From assembly GCA_964468725.1 (NCBI GenBank), contig CAYXVU010000002.1, forward strand, positions 993 to 64,992: DNA of 64,000 nt, in the 5' to 3' direction. Below are positions 2 to 34,298 of the stretch, one piece after another. Source of the stretch: an uncultured Clostridia bacterium (GTDB taxonomy: Bacteria; Acidobacteriota; Blastocatellia; UBA7656). The notes beneath the pieces are model-generated. The model had not been told where the DNA came from, searched no databases, and saw only the letters and a program-made list of their open reading frames with translations. How positions within the stretch are numbered: position 1 is the first letter of the stretch; every line of letters begins with the position of its first letter. The position numbers and the translations under genes were made by a program.

Positions 2-1150
<1,149 letters not shown>

Positions 1151-1208
1151 GCGGGCATCGCGCAGTCAGCGTATAATCGTCACACGTTTATCGTTTGAGG
1201 CTGGCAGA

Positions 1209-1382
1209 ATGAGTTTTCTAATTGAGATTGAGCGAGAAGAGGGCGGACGCTGGGTGGCCGAAGTCACCGATCTGCCCGGCGTGATGGTGTACGGACAAAC
1301 CCGCGACAAGGCCATCGTTCGCGTGCAAACTCTGGCCTTGCGCATCGTCGCCGACAGACTGGAACAAAGAAACCTTGCATAG
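1209..1382 (+). CDS. Small HicB-family (UPF0150) protein of 57 aa, below the ORF-track cutoff
   Basis: Its translation is MSFLIEIEREEGGRWVAEVTDLPGVMVYGQTRDKAIVRVQTLALRIVADRLEQRNLA. The pattern (I.IE.E.GG..A.VPDLPG....G.T..EA) resembles the HicB-like antitoxin fold. It lies 8 nt upstream of the MTase gene. Confidence 0.45.
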   Translation: MSFLIEIEREEGGRWVAEVTDLPGVMVYGQTRDKAIVRVQTLALRIVADRLEQRNLA

Positions 1383-1390
1383 GATCATAG

Positions 1391-2377
1391 ATGTCTAAAA
1401 TCAAAGAACAAACTTCCACCTTCGGGCGCAACAAAGAAACGCCGAATTTTTTCGGGCAGCCATTACAGCAAGGCACGTATAGTCACCTGAAACCCGACGA
1501 TATTGATGTAGCAACGCCAACACTTTTCTATTCGCATCCTAATGGACAGATATGGATAGGCGACGCGGTTGGGTGGCTGCAATCTCTGAAATCAGAGTCA
1601 GTAGATTTGATATTTGCCGACCCTCCATACAACATTAGAAAAGCCGAATGGGATAGTTTCGAATCGCAAAACGAGTACGTCAACTGGTCAATGCGCTGGA
1701 TTGAGCAAGCGTCACGCGTCCTCAAAAAAACCGGAACACTCTACCTTTGCGGCTTTTCTGAAATTTTGGCTGATCTCAAACTTCCTGCCTCGCGCCACTT
1801 TCAGGGCTGCCGATGGATGGTTTGGCATTATAAGAACAAAGCGAATCTCGGTAACGACTGGGGGCGTTCGCACGAAAGTATTTTGCATTTTAGAAAGAGC
1901 AAACAATTTACCTTCAACCTAGATGATGTGCGAATCCCTTATGGAAATCATACGTTGAAGTATCCTGAGCATCCACAAGCGGAATCCAGTCAATATGGCA
2001 AAAGTAGAGCGAATAAAAACCAACTCTGGCAACCCCATCCGAAGGGCGCAAAACCTAGAGACGTTTTGGAAATCCCAACCACCTGCAACAGCATGCATGA
2101 AAAGACGGCACACCCAACACAGAAGCCGGAAGAGTTAGTAAGAAAATTCGTGTTGGCTTCATCGAATCCGGGCGATTTGGTCATTGACCCCTTTCTCGGC
2201 TCTGGCACAACAGCAGTTGTTGCGCAGCAATTGAAACGCCGATGGGAAGGATGCGATATCACAATGGAATACTGTCAATGGGCGGCCAAACGCGTTGAAC
2301 TAGTCGAAGACTGGCCGATTGAGAAATGGATTCGTTACGATCTGGAAAATGAGCAGCGAAGGAAATCGATCCGATGA
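1391..2377 (+). CDS. Site-specific DNA methyltransferase, beta class (N6-adenine or N4-cytosine)
   Basis: Motif IV DLIFADPPYN lies near the N-terminus and motif I VIDPFLGSGTT near the C-terminus, which is the beta-class order. GC is markedly lower than in flanking DNA. Confidence 0.8.
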   Translation: MSKIKEQTSTFGRNKETPNFFGQPLQQGTYSHLKPDDIDVATPTLFYSHPNGQIWIGDAVGWLQSLKSESVDLIFADPPYNIRKAEWDSFESQNEYVNWSMRWIEQASRVLKKTGTLYLCGFSEILADLKLPASRHFQGCRWMVWHYKNKANLGNDWGRSHESILHFRKSKQFTFNLDDVRIPYGNHTLKYPEHPQAESSQYGKSRANKNQLWQPHPKGAKPRDVLEIPTTCNSMHEKTAHPTQKPEELVRKFVLASSNPGDLVIDPFLGSGTTAVVAQQLKRRWEGCDITMEYCQWAAKRVELVEDWPIEKWIRYDLENEQRRKSIR

Positions 2378-3330
2378 AACCAACGTCGCTTGCCGATTTG
2401 CAGGCCAGTGTGCAAGACCGATTCGCGTTCAGCAGGCTGGAGGATTACTTCACTCTGGGTTGCGAATTCCTCCGGTTAATAGACAGGATGCAGCCCACTC
2501 GGATTATCTCTCCTTCGCACGCGAACTATATTTTCTACCAATACAGCGCAGCCTATCGAAATCGAATTACCCGCCCCCTGAATGTGAATTTGTTTATTGA
2601 GGAGGCAGAAGAACTTGTAGGAGCAAGCGAAAGATTTGTCAGCTTTCTCGACGATTTGAAGCACCACAAAGCGGCGATTGCGACACGAAGGGCAAGTCGA
2701 AAATATATCGCTTCTAAAGAAATCAACAAAGTCATCTATACCTTGCAGCAAGCCATTGGCAGCATTGGGGATTCGTTCGAGAATGCAAATCAGTGTAGAA
2801 AAAGAGTAGGACAATTATTTGAAAACTTGGTCAAACTCGTCATCCAACAAATTGGCTTGGTGTGTGAGCCCCGCACCGTCAACATCCCGATAGCAGGGTA
2901 TTCTGATCGCAAGATGTCTTATGAATTAGATGTAGTCTTTACCCGAAGCAAGGTGGTTGTCGCAGCAGAAACTCATTTCATCCATCCTTCAGAAGTTGTC
3001 GGTTCCGTTAAAACGACAAGCAAGGATCGAATAGACAAGATATTCCTCGACAAATTTTTACTGACGAAACTTCTCGGCAGAGATATTCCCGTTGTCGCTA
3101 TTTTTCTCCATGATGTTCAGCGGGCGAACAAAGGCAATAGCATCTTTGGCATCAATTCGACTTTCAAAAGCAATCACTTTCTTGGCTACACTGTCGCGTT
3201 AAATCGCTTGGATGGCGTTTATTATGTTGATCCTAGACCGGAAATGTTCGACAACGAACGGTTGCGGGAACAGATCAGCGATTTTCAAGCTTTTTTGGTG
3301 AACGACTTATGGACTCTTTCAAACCGGTAA
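2374..3330 (+). CDS. ORFan of 318 aa, translationally coupled to the MTase; putative Type II restriction endonuclease
   Basis: Its ATG overlaps the MTase stop (ATGA). It is AT-rich like the MTase. No known family motif was recognised. YELDVVF...SEVVGSVK may be a weak PD-(D/E)xK-like signature. Confidence 0.45.
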   Translation: MKPTSLADLQASVQDRFAFSRLEDYFTLGCEFLRLIDRMQPTRIISPSHANYIFYQYSAAYRNRITRPLNVNLFIEEAEELVGASERFVSFLDDLKHHKAAIATRRASRKYIASKEINKVIYTLQQAIGSIGDSFENANQCRKRVGQLFENLVKLVIQQIGLVCEPRTVNIPIAGYSDRKMSYELDVVFTRSKVVVAAETHFIHPSEVVGSVKTTSKDRIDKIFLDKFLLTKLLGRDIPVVAIFLHDVQRANKGNSIFGINSTFKSNHFLGYTVALNRLDGVYYVDPRPEMFDNERLREQISDFQAFLVNDLWTLSNR

Positions 3331-3607: not shown

Positions 3608-4531
3608 CTAATAGGCACAGCGGTAATTGTAAAACTCATAGACGCGGCTCCACGCGCTGCCTCTCCTTTTGTAAATCCGATACGTGATGCCCTCAAAGCT
3701 GGTGTCGGCGATGATGACTTCCGATAAGCCGTCGCCGTCGAGGTCAAGATGGTCTACCAGAATTTGCGCCAAGACCTCTTCGCCGATTTGATCAATGCTT
3801 GCCCCTGACATCAAATCCTTTTCCGTCACCGCACCGTATTGCGACAGGGTGACTTTGAACTCTTTCCCCTTCGGCTCGGCAAAGAGTAAGAGCAAATAGG
3901 CTGCATCCACACCGCGCTGTTTTTTGATGACAAACGTGCCGATAATCTCGTCACGGCCATCGCCGTTTAAGTCAACAGCCGTGACGTTGAGCTGTTTGAC
4001 CGCAGCGAGCAAGTTTTCGGCTACGCCTTTTTGGTGATAAGTCTTCTGCGCGAGTTCGAAAATCGCTCTGCGTTCAGTGGCGGTCGGCTGCCGCCGCGAA
4101 ATGGTTTTGCCGCCGAGCCTGGTTGCATTGGTGGCAATCGCCATCACGCGGTCTTTGAGCCGCGCTGCGCCCGCGCCTTTGGCTTCGACGCGCGCTTGCG
4201 TGCGCGCACATTCGGCATCCTTGCCCATCCATTTTTTGACGGTGATGTCGCCCGCTGCGCCGCCGCCGAAGATCAGCCGGTATTTCTGCCCGGCGCGATA
4301 GTAGTCGCGCGCCATCCTGGTCAGCGCCGCCACCTCAGAGGTTCCCGAAGGCGGTTGCGTAAAGCGCCCTTTATTGATGATGACGATGGGGTCAATCAAA
4401 ACACCGGCAGGCGTTTTCGAAACGGCAAAGAGAACGGTTTTCTGATTGCTAACCGGCGCTTTGTTCTGTGCTCCTACGGGCAGAAGCAGCAAGACTGTGA
4501 TGAGAGGGGCAAAAATTTTGTTCAAGACCAT
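3608..4531 (-). CDS. Secreted protein with FG-GAP/VCBS-like calcium-binding loops
   Basis: A signal peptide MVLNKIFAPLITVLLLLPVGAQ follows an internal Met, so the ORF-track start at 4618 is probably too long. The motifs DLNGDGRDEI and DLDGDGLSEV are present. Confidence 0.5.
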   Translation of the reverse strand: MVLNKIFAPLITVLLLLPVGAQNKAPVSNQKTVLFAVSKTPAGVLIDPIVIINKGRFTQPPSGTSEVAALTRMARDYYRAGQKYRLIFGGGAAGDITVKKWMGKDAECARTQARVEAKGAGAARLKDRVMAIATNATRLGGKTISRRQPTATERRAIFELAQKTYHQKGVAENLLAAVKQLNVTAVDLNGDGRDEIIGTFVIKKQRGVDAAYLLLLFAEPKGKEFKVTLSQYGAVTEKDLMSGASIDQIGEEVLAQILVDHLDLDGDGLSEVIIADTSFEGITYRIYKRRGSAWSRVYEFYNYRCAY

Positions 4532-4686
4532 CACCTCGAGTTCAGATTCGTTGCTTGATAGTAGCACATCATTTATTATCGTTCGTGCCTGTTTGATGAG
4601 GGACTCCACATTCCGCACGGGAGGACTTCTCAGCGCCGCTTCCTAAACCTAGGATTTGAATCTCTCTTCGCAAAGGGATTGTCGGT

Positions 4687-11355: not shown

Positions 11356-11675
11356 TTGGCGGCAACTCCATTGAGTCGGGCGAAACCGGAATCTTGATAG
11401 CAGCCAGCCCCTTGACAGACCAAATTGCAAAGCAAGGTGCGCGGAACTGTGCAGCGCGGTTTGCCGGACTCCGTAGGGCATTATGCGCTCTCTGCGGCGA
11501 TGGCTCAAAGGCGCAAGGGAGAAAATAGTATTGCCCTTACGGGTGACATCGCATATCTTTGGAACACCCCGCCCCGCAACACGATAGCTGCCCGGCGGTG
11601 CCCCTATTCCGATCATCAAACCCCTGCGAAAAGGCAACCTCTCGATTCGTCTTCAACTTCGCAGCAGGAGACCGA

Positions 11676-12878
11676 ATGAGTTTCTTCGACCTTCACCCGA
11701 TACTCGAAAAGATGCTGGCCGTCGCCGACAATATCTCGGATCTGAACTTTTCCGTGGGACGACCGCCGCAGGTCGAAATCAACGGCAAACTCTCGCCCGT
11801 CGAAGTCAAAGGATTGCGCACGCTGACCCCCTATCAAACCGAGATCATTGCTATGTCCTTGATGGAAGGCAACACCGATGCGGCTCGGCGGTTTGTCCAA
11901 ACCGGCTCGGCCGACATCAGCTATTCGGTGCAAAACAAAGTCCGATTTCGCGTCAACATCTTCAAGCAGAAAGGGGCAATTTCAATCGTCATGCGGGTCA
12001 TTCCGACTTACATCCCGACGATTGAAAGCTTGGTGTTGCCGCCGCAACTAGGCGAGGTCTCGAATCTGAAAAACGGCATTGTGCTACTGACCGGCCCGAC
12101 CGGATCGGGGAAATCTTCGACGCTGGCTGCCATCATAGACAAAATTAATAACGAGCACAGCTATCATATTGTTACCATCGAAGACCCGATTGAATTTCTG
12201 CATTCGCACAAACGCTCGACCATCAATCAACGCGAGTTGGGAACCGACACGCCGACCTTCGCGCTCGGCTTGCGTGCCGCGCTCAGACAAGCGCCGAAAG
12301 TGATTCTCGTCGGCGAGATGCGCGATATGGAAACAACGGAAATCGCTCTGGAGGCTTCGGAAACCGGCCATCTGGTCTTGTCCACGCTGCATACGACCGA
12401 TGCTTCAAAGACCGTCAATCGCATCATCGGCATCTATCCGAAATCCGAAGAGCACGTCATTCGCACACGCATGGCACAAGCCTTTCGCTACATCGTCTCG
12501 CAACGCCTGATTCCGCGCGCCGATGGCAACGGGCGGATTGCCGCGGTCGAGATTTTGAAATCAACGGCGCGCACCCGCGAATACATCGAACAAGGCGAGA
12601 TCGAAGGCCGTACGTTGCTCGAAGCTATGCAAGACGGCGAGTTGGAAGGCATGCAACACTTCGATCAAGTCATCGAACGGATGATTCGCAGTGGCGTCAT
12701 CACCCAAGAAGATGGGCTCGCCTTTGCATCGAACTCCTCAAATCTGTTGTTGCGGTTGTCGGGGCTTGGCACCTCTGACGATATGCTGAGTCGCCGCGAA
12801 GAACGCCACTATATGCCGCCCAAATCGGTAGACAGCCTGCTGCGTATGCGGATTGGCGACCCGACCGTCGAACGATGA
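11676..12878 (+). CDS. pilT: Type IV pilus retraction ATPase PilT
   Basis: Walker A GPTGSGKSST and the PilT-family motifs HIVTIEDPIEF and VLVGEMRD. The start was placed at MSFFDLHPILEKM. Confidence 0.8.
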   Translation: MSFFDLHPILEKMLAVADNISDLNFSVGRPPQVEINGKLSPVEVKGLRTLTPYQTEIIAMSLMEGNTDAARRFVQTGSADISYSVQNKVRFRVNIFKQKGAISIVMRVIPTYIPTIESLVLPPQLGEVSNLKNGIVLLTGPTGSGKSSTLAAIIDKINNEHSYHIVTIEDPIEFLHSHKRSTINQRELGTDTPTFALGLRAALRQAPKVILVGEMRDMETTEIALEASETGHLVLSTLHTTDASKTVNRIIGIYPKSEEHVIRTRMAQAFRYIVSQRLIPRADGNGRIAAVEILKSTARTREYIEQGEIEGRTLLEAMQDGELEGMQHFDQVIERMIRSGVITQEDGLAFASNSSNLLLRLSGLGTSDDMLSRREERHYMPPKSVDSLLRMRIGDPTVER

Positions 12879-24946: not shown

Positions 24947-27900
24947 TTACGAAACGCTGAGGCTGGTCGTGCTTTGCCTGACGGTTCGTATGGCTGTGAG
25001 CAGATCATCACGGCCAAACTCACCTTTCTGAATGAGGATAATTCTGCCGGTATCAAGCGCCAAACGCTCTTCGCGTGTGAGGTCGGCAGCGGTGACCAAA
25101 ACAATGGGTAACGCCTTCCCGCGCGCGCTGGCTGCCAAGCGATGGACAAATTCAAAGCCGTCCATTTCCGGCAACATCAAATCCAAGACGACCACATCGG
25201 GCTGAAATCGCTCCACCTCCTCAAGCGCCTGTTCCCCATCGCTTGCCGTGTGAACGGCTGCCGCATGGCCATCCAGCATAGTTACCAACAAGGTGAGGGT
25301 ATCCGGGTCATCTTCGACGACTAGCACGCGCTGAAATTCCGCTGCTCGCTCCGGGTTGAGCGCTTTGATAAGCGCCTCTCGGGTGAGCGGTTTGACGATA
25401 AACGCCGAGGCTCCGGCTTTGATTGCCGGTAATTCGTCGCTTGCATTGGACGAAATCGCGATCACTGGCTGGGCGGCGTTATGCGCGCGGATGCGCCGAA
25501 TCCCCTCCTGGCTCTTGACGATGGAATCGAGGTCGAAGACGATGGCGCGCGGTTCTGCCATCAGGGCAATCTCTACGCCGCTGACCCCATCCTTTGCTGC
25601 GGCGACGGCGTACCCGACTTCGGCTAAATACTTTTTGATGACATAGAAGGCTGAGGCATCGTTTGAAACGATCAACGCCGTATGTTCGGTATCGGCAAAC
25701 GCCAAGTCCGAGGCGTTGGTGCGAGCTTCTACGGCAAGCGGTAGGGTGACGGTAAACTGCGATCCTTGACCGGGCTGGCTGGTGACGGAAATTTCGCCGC
25801 CGAGCAATTGCACCAAGCGTTTAGTGATGGCCAGCCCCAACCCCGTGCCGGTGCGCTGCGCCCGATTTTGGTTGTCCGCTTGGCGGAACTCTTCGAATAT
25901 CTTCTCCAGATCGCTCGGCGCGATGCCGATGCCGGTGTCCGAGACGGAGATTTGCACCCCCTCTTCTCCCAGTTTGGCAGCCGTGACTTTGACTTCACCG
26001 GCGCGGGTGAATTTGAGGGCGTTAGAGAGCAGATTGAAGAGAATCTGTTGCAATCGGGTCTTATCGGTTTGCAGAGCGGGCAAGTCATTGGCCAGGTCTG
26101 TCCGCAGCGGAACCGGGCAGGCTTCTCTAATCCCTTCCAGCGCTCGCAAGGACGCCTGAATAATCTCGCGGACATCCATCTCTTCAACCTGTAACTCCAG
26201 GCGACCGGCATCCATCTTCGAAAGATCGAGCAGGTTATTGATGAAGGCCAGCAACTCGCGGGCATTGCGCGCCACCCGTTCCAGATTGCTTTGTTGAGCT
26301 TCGGCCAGCCGCAGCGCCGGGTCATCAAGCAGCAGGGAGGTGAAGCCGATAATGGCGTTCATAGGGGTTCGCAATTCGTGCGCGAGGTTTGCCATAAACT
26401 GCGATTTGCGACGGCTCTCGACAGCTAGTTGGCGATTCTGCTCGCGCAACAATTGATTGTATTGCGCGGTTTCCGCCTGCTCTTGTCCGGCTTCGTACAG
26501 AGCGGTCAGGCTGGCCTCCATTTGGACAATCTGCGCTTGAATGCTTTGCACTTCGCTGTGGAGATCGGCATTGAGCGTGTGCAGGCGGTCGCGCTCTTTC
26601 GCCAGTACGGCGTTTTGTTCCGCCGCTTTGCGATTGGCCTCGACTAATTGCTGATGGCCGTCCTGCCCGCGCGCGAGGGCTTCATCAAGGTGGAGAATCT
26701 TTTCCTGTAAAGCGGCGAGGACGGTCTTTTGGTAGCTGTTCTCTTCGGTCGCGCTCACCAGTTGTTGCTCAAGTTCGAGGCGGATCTCTTCGAGCTTCGC
26801 TTTGCTCTCGTCCTTGACCCGCAAGGTGCTTTGCAGATCATCGAGGCTCTCGCTTAAGGTGGCATTCTGCTCGCGCAGCCGCTGATTTTCATCAGCGAGA
26901 AAGGACTGGCGATTCTGCACGGTTTGCGAACTCTCTTGCAGATTGAAGAGTTCCTCTTCGCGGCTCTCGATTTCGCTTCTCAGGGCTTCGATTTCACGCT
27001 CACGGTCGCTCAAACGCGAGTTGGCTGCTTCGATACGGTGGCCGTTTTTTGCAGCCTCCATCTCCAAGATATCAATGCGTGCGTTGAGCGCAGACTTCTC
27101 CTCTTCGAGTTGCTGGCGGAAGGCAGCCGCCTGCATCAGGGCCTCCGCCGCTGCGCGTTCCCGTTCTTGATATTGGAGGGTGAGTTGATGAAGTTGATCT
27201 TTGAGGTCGCGGTGTTTCTCTTCGAGTTGGATGGTTTGTTGCAAGACTTCGTTATCGGCTTGCAGCAATTTGTCGCGTTCCATCTGGGTCTGCACGACCT
27301 CGCGCGTCAACTGCGCGACGGCGGCCTGCAATTCAGTTTCGCGGTAGCTGGATGAGCGTTCTAGAGCCGCGAGCTTTTCCGTCTCTTTTTCCAAACGGGT
27401 GCGAAACAATTCACACCGCGAATTCAATTCAGCAACCCGAATGGCGGCGCTGGCTGCCGGAGCCAGCCGTCCCAAGGCAATGGCTTCCACCGCTTCGATG
27501 GCGCGGTGATTGAAGACGCCGATCAAGCCAATCGTACCGCTGGCGCCGCGCAGCGGATAGAGCAAGTAGGTATCGCGGCTATCGCCCGGTGCGCCATGTT
27601 GTAGGCCGAAGAGTTTATTGCTGGTGCCATGGGCCTCGTTGAAATCGAAGGTTCCGCCGCGCGCGATCAGTGAGGCATTCAAAATGGCCATTGGAATGCG
27701 CGGATACTCTTTGTCGAGGGCAGCGCCGCTGACCGCCGACAGATGTAGACACATCTGCCGGTTGCCGCAACTGTCAGCCAGCGGACAGCTTTCACAGATA
27801 TCGCCGCGTTTGACCACCCAGATTTTGCAGGTCGGCGCTTCCATATCAGCAGCGATCTGCTCGGCAACCAAGGTGAGCGCGCGATCCAGATTGGCGTTGC

Positions 27901-28045
27901 GTGCGATCTCTTCGAATACATCGCGGATTTGTTCTTCTCTTGCTGTGTCCATGGCGTATTGCAGGGAATCAAGCGATCTGTCTTCAGTTGCGAGGGCTGC
28001 CTGCCGAGTCAGGCTGATTCTAACCTTACTCGAAATCAGCGTCAA
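24947..28045 (-). CDS. Hybrid sensor histidine kinase with an N-terminal Cys-rich GAF, a long coiled coil, HisKA plus HATPase_c, and C-terminal receiver domains
   Basis: H-box HELRTPMNAI; G-boxes; at least two REC domains (DLMLPEMDGFEF). The start is uncertain between TTG at 28045 and ATG at 27952. Confidence 0.75.
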   Translation of the reverse strand: MTLISSKVRISLTRQAALATEDRSLDSLQYAMDTAREEQIRDVFEEIARNANLDRALTLVAEQIAADMEAPTCKIWVVKRGDICESCPLADSCGNRQMCLHLSAVSGAALDKEYPRIPMAILNASLIARGGTFDFNEAHGTSNKLFGLQHGAPGDSRDTYLLYPLRGASGTIGLIGVFNHRAIEAVEAIALGRLAPAASAAIRVAELNSRCELFRTRLEKETEKLAALERSSSYRETELQAAVAQLTREVVQTQMERDKLLQADNEVLQQTIQLEEKHRDLKDQLHQLTLQYQERERAAAEALMQAAAFRQQLEEEKSALNARIDILEMEAAKNGHRIEAANSRLSDREREIEALRSEIESREEELFNLQESSQTVQNRQSFLADENQRLREQNATLSESLDDLQSTLRVKDESKAKLEEIRLELEQQLVSATEENSYQKTVLAALQEKILHLDEALARGQDGHQQLVEANRKAAEQNAVLAKERDRLHTLNADLHSEVQSIQAQIVQMEASLTALYEAGQEQAETAQYNQLLREQNRQLAVESRRKSQFMANLAHELRTPMNAIIGFTSLLLDDPALRLAEAQQSNLERVARNARELLAFINNLLDLSKMDAGRLELQVEEMDVREIIQASLRALEGIREACPVPLRTDLANDLPALQTDKTRLQQILFNLLSNALKFTRAGEVKVTAAKLGEEGVQISVSDTGIGIAPSDLEKIFEEFRQADNQNRAQRTGTGLGLAITKRLVQLLGGEISVTSQPGQGSQFTVTLPLAVEARTNASDLAFADTEHTALIVSNDASAFYVIKKYLAEVGYAVAAAKDGVSGVEIALMAEPRAIVFDLDSIVKSQEGIRRIRAHNAAQPVIAISSNASDELPAIKAGASAFIVKPLTREALIKALNPERAAEFQRVLVVEDDPDTLTLLVTMLDGHAAAVHTASDGEQALEEVERFQPDVVVLDLMLPEMDGFEFVHRLAASARGKALPIVLVTAADLTREERLALDTGRIILIQKGEFGRDDLLTAIRTVRQSTTSLSVS

Positions 28046-28871: not shown

Positions 28872-29582
28872 ATGATTAGTGAGGCCATCGGGTCAGGGGC
28901 AAAACGTATCCTCGACGCCATCGTGCGCGGGCTGGCGCGCAAGAGCATCAACCCGAATGCGCTGACGTTCTTCGGCCTGTTGATCAACCTCGGCTGCGGC
29001 ATGCTCTACGGTTATGGTCGATTCTTCGCCGCCGGTTGGTTGCTCATCTTCGCCGCGATCTTTGATATGCTTGACGGGCGGGTAGCGCGCCTGCGCGGGC
29101 GGGTAACCCGTTTCGGCGCTTTCTTCGATTCCGTATTGGATCGCTATTCGGACATCGTTGTCTATGTCGGTATTATGGTCTTTTATGCGCGCGACACCGC
29201 CGCACACTCGGCGCTGTTGGTAGCGTTGACCGGGTTGGCGTTGGTCGGTTCGGTTTTAGTCAGCTATTCACGGGCGCGAGCCGAATCGCTGGCCATTGCC
29301 TGCAAAGTGGGATTTTTGGAGCGCCCCGAACGTATGGTGTTGTTGATTATTGCGTCGCTCACTTCGATTGGGCCGACGAGCAGTCCGTTCTTATACAAGA
29401 TGCCGCAGGTTCTGTGGGTGTTGGCGATACTCTCTCACTGGACCGTCGTGCATCGCATTTATCATACTTGGCGCGAACTGCGAGAACCGGATCGCGCTGC
29501 CATCGAGACGGCACGGGCGGAGAAACAAGAAGCCGCAAGAAACGAAGCCCTCATGCGAGCCGACTACTCTGTGCAGAATTGA
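28872..29582 (+). CDS. CDP-alcohol phosphatidyltransferase family protein
   Basis: Motif DMLDGRVAR...G...DSVLDR, and it is multi-TM. Confidence 0.65.
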   Translation: MISEAIGSGAKRILDAIVRGLARKSINPNALTFFGLLINLGCGMLYGYGRFFAAGWLLIFAAIFDMLDGRVARLRGRVTRFGAFFDSVLDRYSDIVVYVGIMVFYARDTAAHSALLVALTGLALVGSVLVSYSRARAESLAIACKVGFLERPERMVLLIIASLTSIGPTSSPFLYKMPQVLWVLAILSHWTVVHRIYHTWRELREPDRAAIETARAEKQEAARNEALMRADYSVQN

Positions 29583-29606
29583 GAGTAGCGGGGAGGAGAA
29601 AAGAAA

Positions 29607-30377
29607 ATGGTTTGTCCGTGTTGTGGCGGGAAACTGACTATCGAAGCGCGTATCTGTGAGTGCGGAGCGCGCTTTGTTGGAGAGCCGCTCATCAAACCTC
29701 ACACCCAAGTCAAACGATTCGGCCCGGTGATGTGGGCCTATACGATCTTCTTTGCTGTCCTTGCTGCCGCTCTGATCTTCACGAAATGGTTGGCGCTTGG
29801 TGCGGTCTTGGTATTGTGGACGGCAAGACGGGCGATGAACTTATCGCGTCAGAATGGTGAACTCTACGGCGGCTTGCGCGCGGCAACTGGTCTGTTATTG
29901 GTCACCGCTATTGCTGGAAGCGCAGCGGGCGGCTACGCCATTTCTTACATCCCGCGTTATCTGGATAACTACCAGGCTTATAAAGATGCGGTTGTCCTAT
30001 CAGAGATGCATCGAATTGCCGCGCGGCTGGAGGAGCACCGGCTTGCAGAAGGCACCTATCCGCCGGAGTCTGAGACCGGCGAGAAGATTTTAGGACAACC
30101 CATGCCGGTAGATTATTGGGGGAATCGCCTGAAGTATGAGCCGTTCACCGAATCCTATGCCGGAGCCTATCCTCCCAATTCCTATGAGAGAAATTTTTCT
30201 TTGGGATCGCAGAAAGTCGTTGGCATCAGAAAGACCAATAACCCCGTGCCGCTAACCAGCATCCCGATCAACAACTTCATTGTTCGCTCAGCCGGAGCTG
30301 ATGGGAAGTTCAATACTTCGGATGACATCGTCATGCGCGACGGCATCGTGATCTCCTCACTGGAGTTAAAGAAATAG
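29607..30377 (+). CDS. Membrane protein with an N-terminal zinc ribbon, two TM helices and a GspG/pseudopilin-like periplasmic domain
   Basis: CPCCG...CECG, then two TMs. EGTYPPES...DYWGNRLKYEP...SAGADGKFNTSDDIVM resembles the T2SS GspG C-domain. There is no GFTLIE prepilin leader. Confidence 0.45.
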   Translation: MVCPCCGGKLTIEARICECGARFVGEPLIKPHTQVKRFGPVMWAYTIFFAVLAAALIFTKWLALGAVLVLWTARRAMNLSRQNGELYGGLRAATGLLLVTAIAGSAAGGYAISYIPRYLDNYQAYKDAVVLSEMHRIAARLEEHRLAEGTYPPESETGEKILGQPMPVDYWGNRLKYEPFTESYAGAYPPNSYERNFSLGSQKVVGIRKTNNPVPLTSIPINNFIVRSAGADGKFNTSDDIVMRDGIVISSLELKK

Positions 30378-30435: not shown

Positions 30436-30468
30436 ACGGGGCGGGCGTGACGGCTCGCCCCGTTTGAT
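30436..30468 (+). terminator. Rho-independent terminator candidate
   Basis: GC-rich hairpin ACGGGGCG-loop-CGCCCCGT followed by TTTGATT. Confidence 0.45.
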
Positions 30469-30566
30469 TCTATAAAGCAACAAAGCAGACGAAGAAGAGA
30501 CAAGGTGGATTAGGCGGGCAGGGCGCGCAGCCGGGTCGCCTCTCTTCAGGCAATCGAGATCGTCTT

Positions 30567-32702: not shown

Positions 32703-34298
32703 ATGCAACCGATCAAATCGCATATTGATAAAGCGTCAGAAGCCTACCAATCCAATTATCAAGCCAATGCCGCAAGCGTAGAGAGGCTGAAGGCCACACT
32801 GGCCAGCACTACGCAAGGCGGAGGCGAGTCTTACGTGAAACGCCATCTGGCCAAAGGCAAACTCTTGCCGCGTGAGCGCGTTGAGATGCTGCTTGACGAA
32901 GGCTCTTACTTTTTGGAGATCGCCCCGCTTGCCGGTATCGGCATGGAACGCGAGTTTCCCGGCGTCGGCGTCATCGGCGGCATCGGTCTGGTCGCCGGAC
33001 GCGAGTGCTTCATCACAGCCAACGAAGCGACGGTCAAAGGCGGCGCGGTCAGCGAAATCTGTCAGGTCAAGAATCGCCGCCTCGCAGACATCGTTGCCCA
33101 GAATCGTCTGCCTAGCATTTCGTTAGTCGAATCGGCGGGCGCTGACTTGCCCGTTCAAGCGAAAATCTTCGTGCCCGGCGGGCGCGGTTTTCGGGAGATC
33201 ACCCGACGCTCGAAAGAACGCATCCCCAGTATTGCCGTCGTCTTTGGCAACTCGACAGCCGGTGGCGCTTATCTGCCCGGCATGTCGGATTACGTGATTA
33301 TGGTCAAAAATCAGGCGCAGGTCTTTTTGGGCGGGCCGCCGCTGGTCAAGATGGCGACCGGCGAGATTGTTGACGAAGAGTCGCTCGGCGGCGCTGAGAT
33401 GCACTCGCGAGTGTCGGGACTATCGGACTATCTGGCCGAAGATGAATTGGATGGATTGCGACAGGCGCGTGATATCGTCAGCCATTTCGATGCTCCGCCT
33501 GCCAAACCGCGCCGTGCGCCGGTCGAAGAGCCGCTCTATGATGCGGATGAACTGCTCGGCATCGCAGCAGCGGATATTCGTGTCCCTTTCGAAGTGCGCG
33601 AAGTCATAGCGCGACTGGTTGATGGCTCGCGTTTCGATGAATTCAAAGCCAAATATGGCACAACCTTAGTGACTGGCTTTGCGCGTCTGCATGGCTTTTC
33701 GGTCGGCATATTGGCCAACAACGGCGTCTTGATCTCCGAATCGGCCAGCAAAGGCGCGCAGTTTATCCAGCTCTGCAATCAACAGAACATCCCGCTCATC
33801 TTTTTGCAAAACATCACAGGCTTTATGGTAGGCCGCAGCTATGAGGAGCAAGGCATCATTCGCAACGGGGCGAAGCTCATCAATGCAGTTTCGAATTCGA
33901 CGGTTCCGGCCCTTACCCTCATGATTGGCGGTTCGTACGGCGCAGGCAATTATGCCATGTGCGGACGCGCTTACGAGCCGCGTTTTCTCTTCACCTGGCC
34001 GAATCATCGCATCGCAGTGATGGGGCCGCAGCAGCTATCGGGGGTGATGGACATCATCAAACGCGAATCGGCGGCCAAGCAGGGACAAGCGGTTGATGAA
34101 GCGAAACTGACGATGATGAAGCAGGCATTGGAGCAGCAAATCGAATCCGAATCCGACCCCTATTTTGCTACGGCGCGTTTGTGGGATGATGGCATTATTG
34201 ACCCGCGTCAGACGCGCACAGTGCTGGCGATTTCATTGTCTGCCGCCTGCCATCGCCCTGTCGAAGGCAGCATGCAATGGGGCGTCTTCCGCCATTGA
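32703..34298 (+). CDS. Acyl-CoA carboxylase carboxyltransferase subunit (PccB/MccB family)
   Basis: Paired N- and C-carboxyltransferase domains, and the [15 protein letters not shown] start region typical of this family. Confidence 0.75.

Follow-up and report, generated by a model that had tools for sequence, protein, structure and literature searches.

A GspG-type domain without a prepilin signal on a zinc-ribbon-like membrane anchor, encoded beside a CDP-alcohol phosphatidyltransferase in Blastocatellia

We have analyzed a gene in a 64,000-nucleotide stretch of DNA (hereafter, the window) from a genome deposited as that of an uncultured Clostridia bacterium and placed by GTDB in the Blastocatellia (Acidobacteriota; UBA7656; GenBank assembly GCA_964468725.1, contig CAYXVU010000002.1, positions 993–64,992 of the forward strand). 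The open reading frame (ORF), here called X, lies at 29607–30377 on the forward strand, and its upstream neighbor, a CDP-alcohol phosphatidyltransferase gene, is called CDPOH. X combines an N-terminal zinc-ribbon motif and three predicted transmembrane (TM) helices with a periplasmic domain related to GspG, the major pseudopilin of type II secretion systems (T2SS), and its sequence lacks the signature of prepilin processing and assembly. The reading that we favor, with moderate confidence for the combination, is that X is an integral inner-membrane protein exapted from a GspG-type pseudopilin and acting as an envelope-lipid partner. An earlier annotation of the window, made from its letters without database searches (the first-pass annotation), had proposed an ORF with exactly these coordinates; it encodes 256 residues from an ATG preceded by a Shine-Dalgarno sequence, and all of the motifs quoted in that annotation are found in X.

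Homology to the major pseudopilins

The resemblance of X to GspG is not significant for the single sequence and is well beyond chance for the family. X alone scores 13.3 bits against Pfam PF08334 (T2SSG; E 0.09, cutoff 21) and 13.2 bits against TIGR01710 (E 0.068, cutoff 88.85), and a phmmer search of the PDB returned only chance matches to TIM-barrel and NHE3 proteins. As these single-sequence searches remained sub-threshold, family profiles were needed. A search of 5.8 billion proteins found only 18 relatives of X, 36–45% identical to it and all with its architecture, and PF08334 was matched by each of the 17 intact close homologues (best E 5e-6). Against the PDB, a profile of 17 sequences matched GspG of enterohaemorrhagic Escherichia coli (3g20) with an E-value of 3.7e-6 and also the full-length PulG (5wda); with 58 sequences, the E-values are 1.2e-6 for 3g20 and 1e-5 for 5wda. 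In the family profile alignment to 5wda, the third hydrophobic helix of X (TM3) lies over residues 5–26 of PulG, and P116 is equivalent to the pilin Pro22. Weaker profile matches of the X family to geopilin and PilA were also found.

An exhaustive HMMER search of 1.84 billion representative proteins gave 715 matches at E ≤ 1e-3, with canonical prepilins carrying a GF[ST]L[LV]E site at E of about 1e-9 to 1e-8. The X family was then aligned by hhalign with eight short prepilin-type relatives, four of which have the textbook GF[ST]L[LV]E site, with a probability of 99.5% (E 1.1e-22, 120 columns). At the level of these alignments, the comparisons establish homology of the predicted periplasmic head and TM3 of X to the T2SS major pseudopilins. 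The first-pass annotation had likened the C-terminal half of the protein to GspG, a likeness that is upheld by the profile searches, hhalign and structure prediction, and that includes the Ca2+-binding loop described below.

An initial AlphaFold2 (AF2) model of X, built from 17 sequences with a predicted local distance difference test score (pLDDT) of 61.7, was replaced by one built from 58 sequences, with a mean pLDDT of 81.9 (92–96 in the core of the head) and a predicted TM-score (pTM) of 0.61. A continuous helix of about 59 residues (residues 90–148) runs in the model from the membrane straight into the periplasmic domain, as does α1 of pilins. Three features by which GspG proteins are recognized are found in X: the α/β globular fold, a hydrophobic α1N continuous with α1C, and an equivalent of Pro22. 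Structure modeling, which had been proposed as a check on the assignment, thus returned similarity to the pseudopilin fold; Foldseek agrees in part, in that GspG/PulG ranked first to third in a search with the first, poorer model.

The Ca2+-binding loop identifies the type of pseudopilin. In OutG/PulG, Ca2+ is coordinated by two backbone carbonyls and by the side chains of D117, T122, D125 and possibly D124 (PMC13081927). When X is aligned to PulG by HMMER, D232, T237, D239 and D240 fall at the ligand positions. All 58 sequences have G230 and D240, and conservation is 90% or more for D232 and D239; T237 reaches at least 90% within the close X family. Judged from this alignment, X retains the acidic and Thr side chains with which GspG coordinates Ca2+, and it probably binds Ca2+ as well. 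Because these positions are conserved, the head can be assigned, from its sequence, to the GspG (endopilin) type specifically, rather than to pilins generally. X differs from GspG by a variable loop insertion of 20–40 residues and by a conserved V-M-R-D-G extension after the D-D-I of the Ca2+ loop.

The loop motif also occurs in a very different setting. Several giant proteins (P0064 of 2618 residues, P0068 of 4137 residues, P0097, P0103, P0118, P0129, P0134 and P0150) match only this C-terminal motif, in the form F-x-L-R-S-x-G-P-D-G-x-x-G-T-x-D-D-I, of which they contain 5 to 26 copies each. This suggests that, in proteins of very large size, tandem repeats may also be built from the Ca2+-loop sequence of GspG.

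Loss of the prepilin signal

What defines a pilin-class protein is its class III signal together with its polymerization. Prepilin peptidase cuts at the cytoplasmic face, directly N-terminal to the α1N helix, and Glu+5 takes part in the canonical contacts of pilins with one another and with the platform. In X, the α1N-equivalent helix follows about 90 other residues. The hhalign register aligns L97-L98-V99 of X with L-L-E(+5) of the canonical GFSLLE prepilin, which places T94, G95 and V99 at the Gly−1, Phe+1 and Glu+5 positions. These columns are variable and hydrophobic among the 58 homologues, with R, A, V, L or T in column 94 and L, A, V, I, T or M in column 99, and none of the 58 has an acidic residue at the +5 position. 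Nor was a class III motif (of the type G[FM][ST]L[IL]E) found in any member of the family. The class III signal peptide is therefore missing, as the first-pass annotation had claimed, and by this alignment the whole prepilin-peptidase and assembly signature (Gly−1, Phe+1 and Glu+5) is absent from X. G89 was considered as a relic of Gly−1, an idea weakened by the hhalign register, in which G89 lies approximately 5 residues upstream of the canonical position.

X thus differs in several respects from the T2SS major pseudopilins GspG, PulG, EpsG and OutG (PF08334, TIGR01710). It has neither their short basic leader nor Gly−1, Phe+1 and Glu+5, it carries about 90 extra N-terminal residues comprising the zinc ribbon and two TM helices, it is encoded outside a gsp operon, and it scores below the family thresholds. 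Since it fails three defining tests of GspG (class III signal, gsp operon context and score threshold), X is not to be filed under that name. Type IV pilins and minor (pseudo)pilins (N_methyl, PF07963) share with X a "lollipop" shape, in which a globular head sits on an α1N embedded in the membrane. However, they require prepilin peptidase processing and Glu+5 for assembly, both of which X lacks, and the α1N equivalent of X sits instead in a predicted three-helix membrane bundle.

The zinc-ribbon motif and the membrane region

The coordinates of X, its parts and adjacent signals are collected in Table 1. In the N-terminal motif, C17 and C19 are invariant in all 58 aligned homologues, and C3, P4 and C6 are kept in all 52 whose N-terminus is included, and conservation is 90% or higher at G20, A21, V24, G25 and P27. 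Two Cys knuckles (four Cys) are thus retained across the homologues, which is the mark of a zinc ribbon at the level of sequence. Pfam zinc-ribbon models gave only weak, sub-threshold matches to the X family. The zinc ribbon that the first-pass annotation described is present as a motif with conserved Cys columns, through which X would probably bind metal, presumably zinc. A zinc-binding anti-sigma factor was also considered and rejected: X lacks the H-x3-C-x2-C motif of that group, and no sigma factor gene is adjacent to it in the cluster.

Table 1. Features of X and of the adjacent DNA (window coordinates).
Feature	Position	Strand	Basis or remarks
CDPOH, phosphatidylinositol-phosphate (PIP)-synthase-like CDP-alcohol phosphatidyltransferase	28872..29582	+	NCBIfam sub-cutoff scores; catalytic motif; directly upstream of X in every locus examined
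Shine-Dalgarno GGAGGAG	29592..29598	+	Read directly from the DNA; 8 nt before the X ATG
ORF X	29607..30377	+	256 residues, ATG start; zinc ribbon, three TM helices and GspG-like periplasmic domain
Cytoplasmic zinc-ribbon motif, residues 1–28	29607..29690	+	C3-P-C-C6-G ... C17-x-C19-G-A-R-x-V-G-x-P-L
TM helix 1, residues 39–57	29721..29777	+	Hydropathy; helix 39–57 in AF2 model
TM helix 2 and cytoplasmic extension, residues 59–82	29781..29852	+	Hydropathy; helix 59–82 in AF2 model
Cytoplasmic loop with the conserved motif P-x-x-[YF]-G-G-x-[RK]-x-A, residues 84–93, directly before TM3	29856..29885	+	Column conservation
TM helix 3 (pilin α1N equivalent), residues 90–113	29874..29945	+	Family profile and hhalign alignment to pilin helix
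Periplasmic GspG-like α/β domain, residues 114–250	29946..30356	+	
Variable low-confidence loop, residues 182–222	30150..30272	+	pLDDT 47–56; alignment gaps; longer here than in most homologues
Ca2+-binding-loop motif R-S-A-G-x-D232-G-x-x-x-T237-x-D239-D240-I	30285..30329	+	Aligned with PulG S113...D117...S122..D124-D125-I126
Terminator-like GC-rich hairpin with weak T tract, 3′ of X	30443..30470	+	Consensus scan only

X has three hydrophobic helices, at about residues 39–57, 59–82 and 90–113. The first-pass annotation had counted two TM helices; this pair is confirmed as a hairpin, to which the α1N equivalent adds a third. Lys and Arg residues number six in residues 1–38, one in the turn between TM1 and TM2, and four in residues 74–91. 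This charge distribution fits a topology with the N-terminus inside, three TM helices and the C-terminus outside, in which the zinc ribbon and a basic loop would be cytoplasmic and the head periplasmic. The conserved loop before TM3 has Tyr or Phe at position 87 in 56 of the 58 homologues, and both G89 and A93 are kept in 55. Residue 87 forms a β-bridge in the AF2 model, compatible with a loop that may pack against the strands of the zinc ribbon. A larger form of the protein, of about 300 residues (found, for example, in Pyrinomonadaceae), differs by a loop of about 45 residues inserted between TM1 and TM2.

The zinc-ribbon motif and the membrane hairpin are kept in every full-length homologue of X. 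We considered whether this module might be a generic anchor that also carries other ectodomains. A profile of the N-terminal 96 residues retrieved 155 of 5.8 billion proteins, and all those inspected have the architecture of X, the form of about 300 residues included; within the sensitivity of the search, the generic anchor was thus rejected. The search for homologues with the same architecture that the first-pass annotation had suggested therefore found them, with zinc ribbon, TM helices and GspG-like domain throughout.

Among known proteins, those with a zinc ribbon and a TM hairpin (of the Pfam zinc_ribbon_2/DUF4190 type) share with X the N-terminal cytoplasmic CxxC...CxxC knuckles followed by two TM helices. 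X has its own signature, CPCCG...CxCGARxVGxPL, which was found only with a GspG-like C-terminus in the searches run. One protein of this zinc-ribbon and TM-hairpin type, P0147 (234 residues), has a CxxCG...CxxCG ribbon, a DUF4190-like TM pair, a canonical-looking pilin helix, AAIAIPNFLNAQ (with the motif AAIAIPNF), and a pilin-like head, again without a prepilin leader. Unrelated to X, it probably joined a pilin domain without a leader to its own zinc ribbon independently.

Gene neighborhood and distribution

CDPOH scores just under the cutoffs of the archaetidylinositol-phosphate and phosphatidylinositol-phosphate synthase models of NCBIfam, which are its nearest (NF040950, 160.5 bits with a cutoff of 180; NF045883, 149.6 bits with a cutoff of 170), and its catalytic motif D-G-x2-A-R...G-x3-D-x3-D is intact. 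X follows it in the same direction as a single-copy gene, with a gap of 24 nucleotides between the CDPOH stop and the X ATG. Consensus scans place a promoter-like site 5′ of CDPOH and the terminator-like hairpin 3′ of X, which may hint, weakly, that CDPOH and X form a bicistronic unit; the hairpin, as similarly slight evidence, suggests that X could be the last gene of its transcription unit, ahead of accC.

The order in the window is a hybrid histidine kinase (on the reverse strand), GreA, CDPOH, X, biotin carboxylase, biotin carboxyl carrier protein (BCCP) and a carboxyltransferase. The order GreA–CDPOH–X–AccC–BCCP recurs in all of the approximately 50 loci with enough flanking sequence, and the distant relatives of about 300 residues occupy the same position in it. 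In one lineage other genes stand in place of GreA, with the CDPOH–X pair retained. A search centered on CDPOH and covering 80 metagenomic loci found X directly downstream in 37 of 37 loci of the nearest CDPOH clade (counting those with at least 300 nucleotides of downstream sequence) and in 0 of 30 loci of more distant CDPOH clades. A scan with one genome per species yielded 49 X loci, essentially all in metagenome-assembled genomes (MAGs) of Blastocatellia, including Chloracidobacterium. These surveys show the family to be confined to Blastocatellia and to one locus. Six of the loci (L008, L016, L017, L039, L047 and L049) come from MAGs titled "uncultured Clostridia bacterium"; their GreA–CDPOH–X–AccC–BCCP arrangement is of the Blastocatellia type and the neighbors are 58–82% identical to those in the window, and the Clostridia label is probably wrong.

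The first-pass annotation had looked to type IV pilus or T2SS genes as possible neighbors. No gsp or pil gene is adjacent to X in any of more than 90 loci, the window included; the conserved neighbor is instead the PIP-synthase-like CDPOH. In the scanned parts of the window, a single gene of pilus or secretion type was seen; it encodes a T2SSE-family ATPase of the PilT/PilB/GspE type (439 residues; PF00437, E 1e-45) at 11559–12878 on the forward strand, 17 kb upstream of X and without other pilus genes around it. Relatives of X are almost always named "hypothetical protein" in the databases; the exceptions are one "type II secretion system protein GspG" at NCBI and two entries named "pseudopilin PulG" at JGI. 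Given the loss of the class III signal and the lack of a secretion or pilus gene context, these names are misleading.

One JGI entry named "phosphatidylglycerophosphate synthase" (P0045, 461 residues) is an apparent fusion of CDPOH and X. It was rejected as a Rosetta-stone fusion, since the C-terminus of CDPOH is out of frame and the linker is a read-through of the intergenic region and the start region of X; P0045 is most likely a frameshift artifact.

In loci without X, the slot after CDPOH holds an unrelated PGPGW-like membrane protein of 142 residues together with a DUF3592 protein in 6 of the 16 distant loci listed, and unrelated genes elsewhere. In these six (L091, L092, L112, L118, L119 and L123; for example, L112:4461-5176), the space between CDPOH and biotin carboxylase encodes a membrane protein of 139–142 residues and a DUF3592 protein of about 95 residues; the L092 copy of the former has a sub-threshold match to PGPGW. 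A DUF3592 gene also follows X in the subfamily of about 300 residues (L057 and L062). The slot after CDPOH seems to collect small membrane proteins.

Discussion

In the reading that we favor, X would have kept the head and α1N of a pseudopilin, with the zinc-ribbon motif, the TM hairpin and the P-x-x-[YF]-G-G loop in place of the leader. The missing Gly−1 site, the missing Glu+5 and the predicted packing of the α1N equivalent against two TM helices suggest that X is neither cleaved nor polymerized, and that it would not be extractable from the membrane. Instead, it may be a static, Ca2+-stabilized periplasmic module, whose single continuous helix of about 59 residues would couple the head rigidly to the small cytoplasmic zinc-ribbon domain. 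We regard this anatomical and evolutionary account as very likely.

The function is the weakest step. The X gene, single-copy and found in Blastocatellia alone, is in every case co-directional with and directly downstream of CDPOH, from which its most likely role would be to assist envelope-lipid or envelope biogenesis as an accessory membrane subunit or partner, rather than to form part of a secretion pseudopilus. That X assists the PIP-synthase-like enzyme as a partner, or has a wider role in envelope biogenesis, is a tentative proposal to which we give clearly less than even weight; for the lipid connection, the one basis is the strict co-directional adjacency of CDPOH and X across deep divergence. 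More doubtful still is a dedicated partnership, in which X would touch the enzyme through its zinc ribbon and three-helix bundle, and its Ca2+-stabilized head would act at the periplasmic face, where it might, for example, recognize or organize a lipid of the inositol type or some envelope component further downstream. If correct, this would be the first non-filament role, in lipid biogenesis, for a domain of the type IV pilin class.

Several observations weigh against the favored reading. On the structural side, X alone is below the Pfam and TIGRFAM thresholds, and a Foldseek search of the PDB with the better, 58-sequence model found nothing significant and did not recover GspG, its match to a Shewanella pilin (4d40) being insignificant. 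Zinc binding, topology and Ca2+ binding are, moreover, all deductions. On the functional side, the order GreA–CDPOH–…–AccC is conserved in Acidobacteria that have no X, so that the link between CDPOH and X may be one of inherited synteny only. X is also the fast-evolving member of the cluster, with identities of 22–45% across the approximately 50 loci compared to 51–87% for its neighbors; a subunit that a housekeeping enzyme could not do without would not usually change so fast. The synteny in lineages without X and the rapid evolution of X both weaken the support for a lipid partner.

An alternative that we consider improbable, though worth keeping in view, is that X is a non-polymerizing mimic of a pseudopilin that works with a type IV pilus or T2SS-like machine encoded elsewhere in the genome, its position beside a lipid gene being a historical accident. 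Toward pilin subunits or assembly-platform proteins, it might be a site for docking, a primer or anchor, or else an inhibitor or decoy. The head does retain the GspG core and Ca2+ loop, the closest relatives outside the family are canonical prepilins, and the genome has at least one T2SSE-family ATPase. Position alone, moreover, need not imply function, as the unrelated small membrane proteins in the post-CDPOH slot of other Acidobacteria illustrate. However, pilus or secretion genes adjoin X in none of the more than 90 loci, and its α1N has no Glu+5 for the canonical contacts between pilins or with the platform.

We think it very unlikely that X is a prepilin-like protein with a giant membrane leader, cut at or near [YF]-G-G89 by prepilin peptidase or another intramembrane protease into a zinc-ribbon protein of about 89 residues and a pseudopilin without Glu+5. 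G89 is kept in 55 of 58 homologues and lies at the predicted cytoplasmic face, directly N-terminal to the α1N-like helix. Work by Strom and Lory in 1991 is said to have shown that Gly−1 is the main determinant of prepilin cleavage and that Glu+5 is dispensable for it, a dependence that would suit such a cut. The canonical Gly−1 position is nevertheless variable and G89 sits about 5 residues upstream of it, and without an acidic +5 equivalent the assembly of the product would be impaired. A cleavage site is shorter than the conserved motif, P-x-x-[YF]-G-G-x-R-x-A, and residue 87 bridges the zinc-ribbon strands in the model, which suggests a structural role. We know of no prepilin leader of the giant zinc-ribbon/two-TM kind.

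Very little credence is due to X as a true major pseudopilin of a T2SS, GspG or PulG, that is processed by prepilin peptidase and polymerized. The GspG-like fold and Ca2+ loop, the one GspG and two PulG names among its relatives, and the T2SSE-family ATPase 17 kb upstream would agree with it. It is already contradicted by the absence of Gly−1, Phe+1 and Glu+5 from the aligned positions, and the stretch of roughly 90 residues, zinc ribbon and TM pair included, ahead of the α1N equivalent, an equivalog score of 13 bits against the 88.85 of TIGR01710, and the lack of adjacent gsp or pil genes in any of more than 90 loci also oppose it. Finally, although the frameshift read-through in P0045 shows that such artifacts occur at the CDPOH–X locus, a mis-called start, a gene fusion created by sequencing error or a decaying pseudogene can practically be dismissed, refuted as it is by an uninterrupted architecture in more than 100 independent sequences (isolates' MAGs, metagenomes) with invariant residues in all three modules, and opposed by a good Shine-Dalgarno sequence with ATG and a confident AF2 model.

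The favored reading, of an exapted pseudopilin held in the inner membrane, would make X a GspG module welded to a zinc-ribbon anchor and kept beside a lipid-synthesis gene rather than a secretion system. From a conserved lineage without the class III signal, one would learn that an ordinary membrane protein can take over the pseudopilin fold for its ectodomain. For a specialist in pili or T2SS this would be moderately surprising, and it resolves no long-standing question. In the searchable literature we found no description of a zinc ribbon joined to a pseudopilin-like or pilin-like domain, or of a leaderless pseudopilin, which does not prove that none exists; on Blastocatellia and pili, we found general pilin papers only. 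For annotation, the automatic names GspG and PulG would wrongly imply a T2SS component in Blastocatellia genomes. The envelope and its lipids are poorly understood in Acidobacteria subdivision 4, and the conserved pairing of CDPOH and X opens a testable way in.

Other genes in the window

The hybrid histidine kinase at 24947–28045 (reverse strand) has 1032 residues, with a coiled-coil-like region of about 300 residues, rich in Gln, Glu and Leu, before the HisKA domain, and two receiver domains. About half of the related loci have such a kinase upstream of greA, in divergent orientation. The carboxyltransferase at 32703–34298 (forward strand), 3′ of biotin carboxylase and BCCP, has a sub-cutoff match to the mmdA/PCC-β-like subfamily (E 9e-92); the three genes resemble a set for an acyl-CoA carboxylase more than they do the housekeeping AccABCD. 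Near the start of the window, at 23–2377 (forward strand), a gene for a protein with a HerA-like helicase domain (DUF87, E 1.6e-24) comes before one for an N6/N4 DNA methylase (E 1.8e-53) and two ORFs without a family match, at 2374–3330 (forward strand) and 3608–4618 (reverse strand). These genes may be a restriction-modification or defense island.

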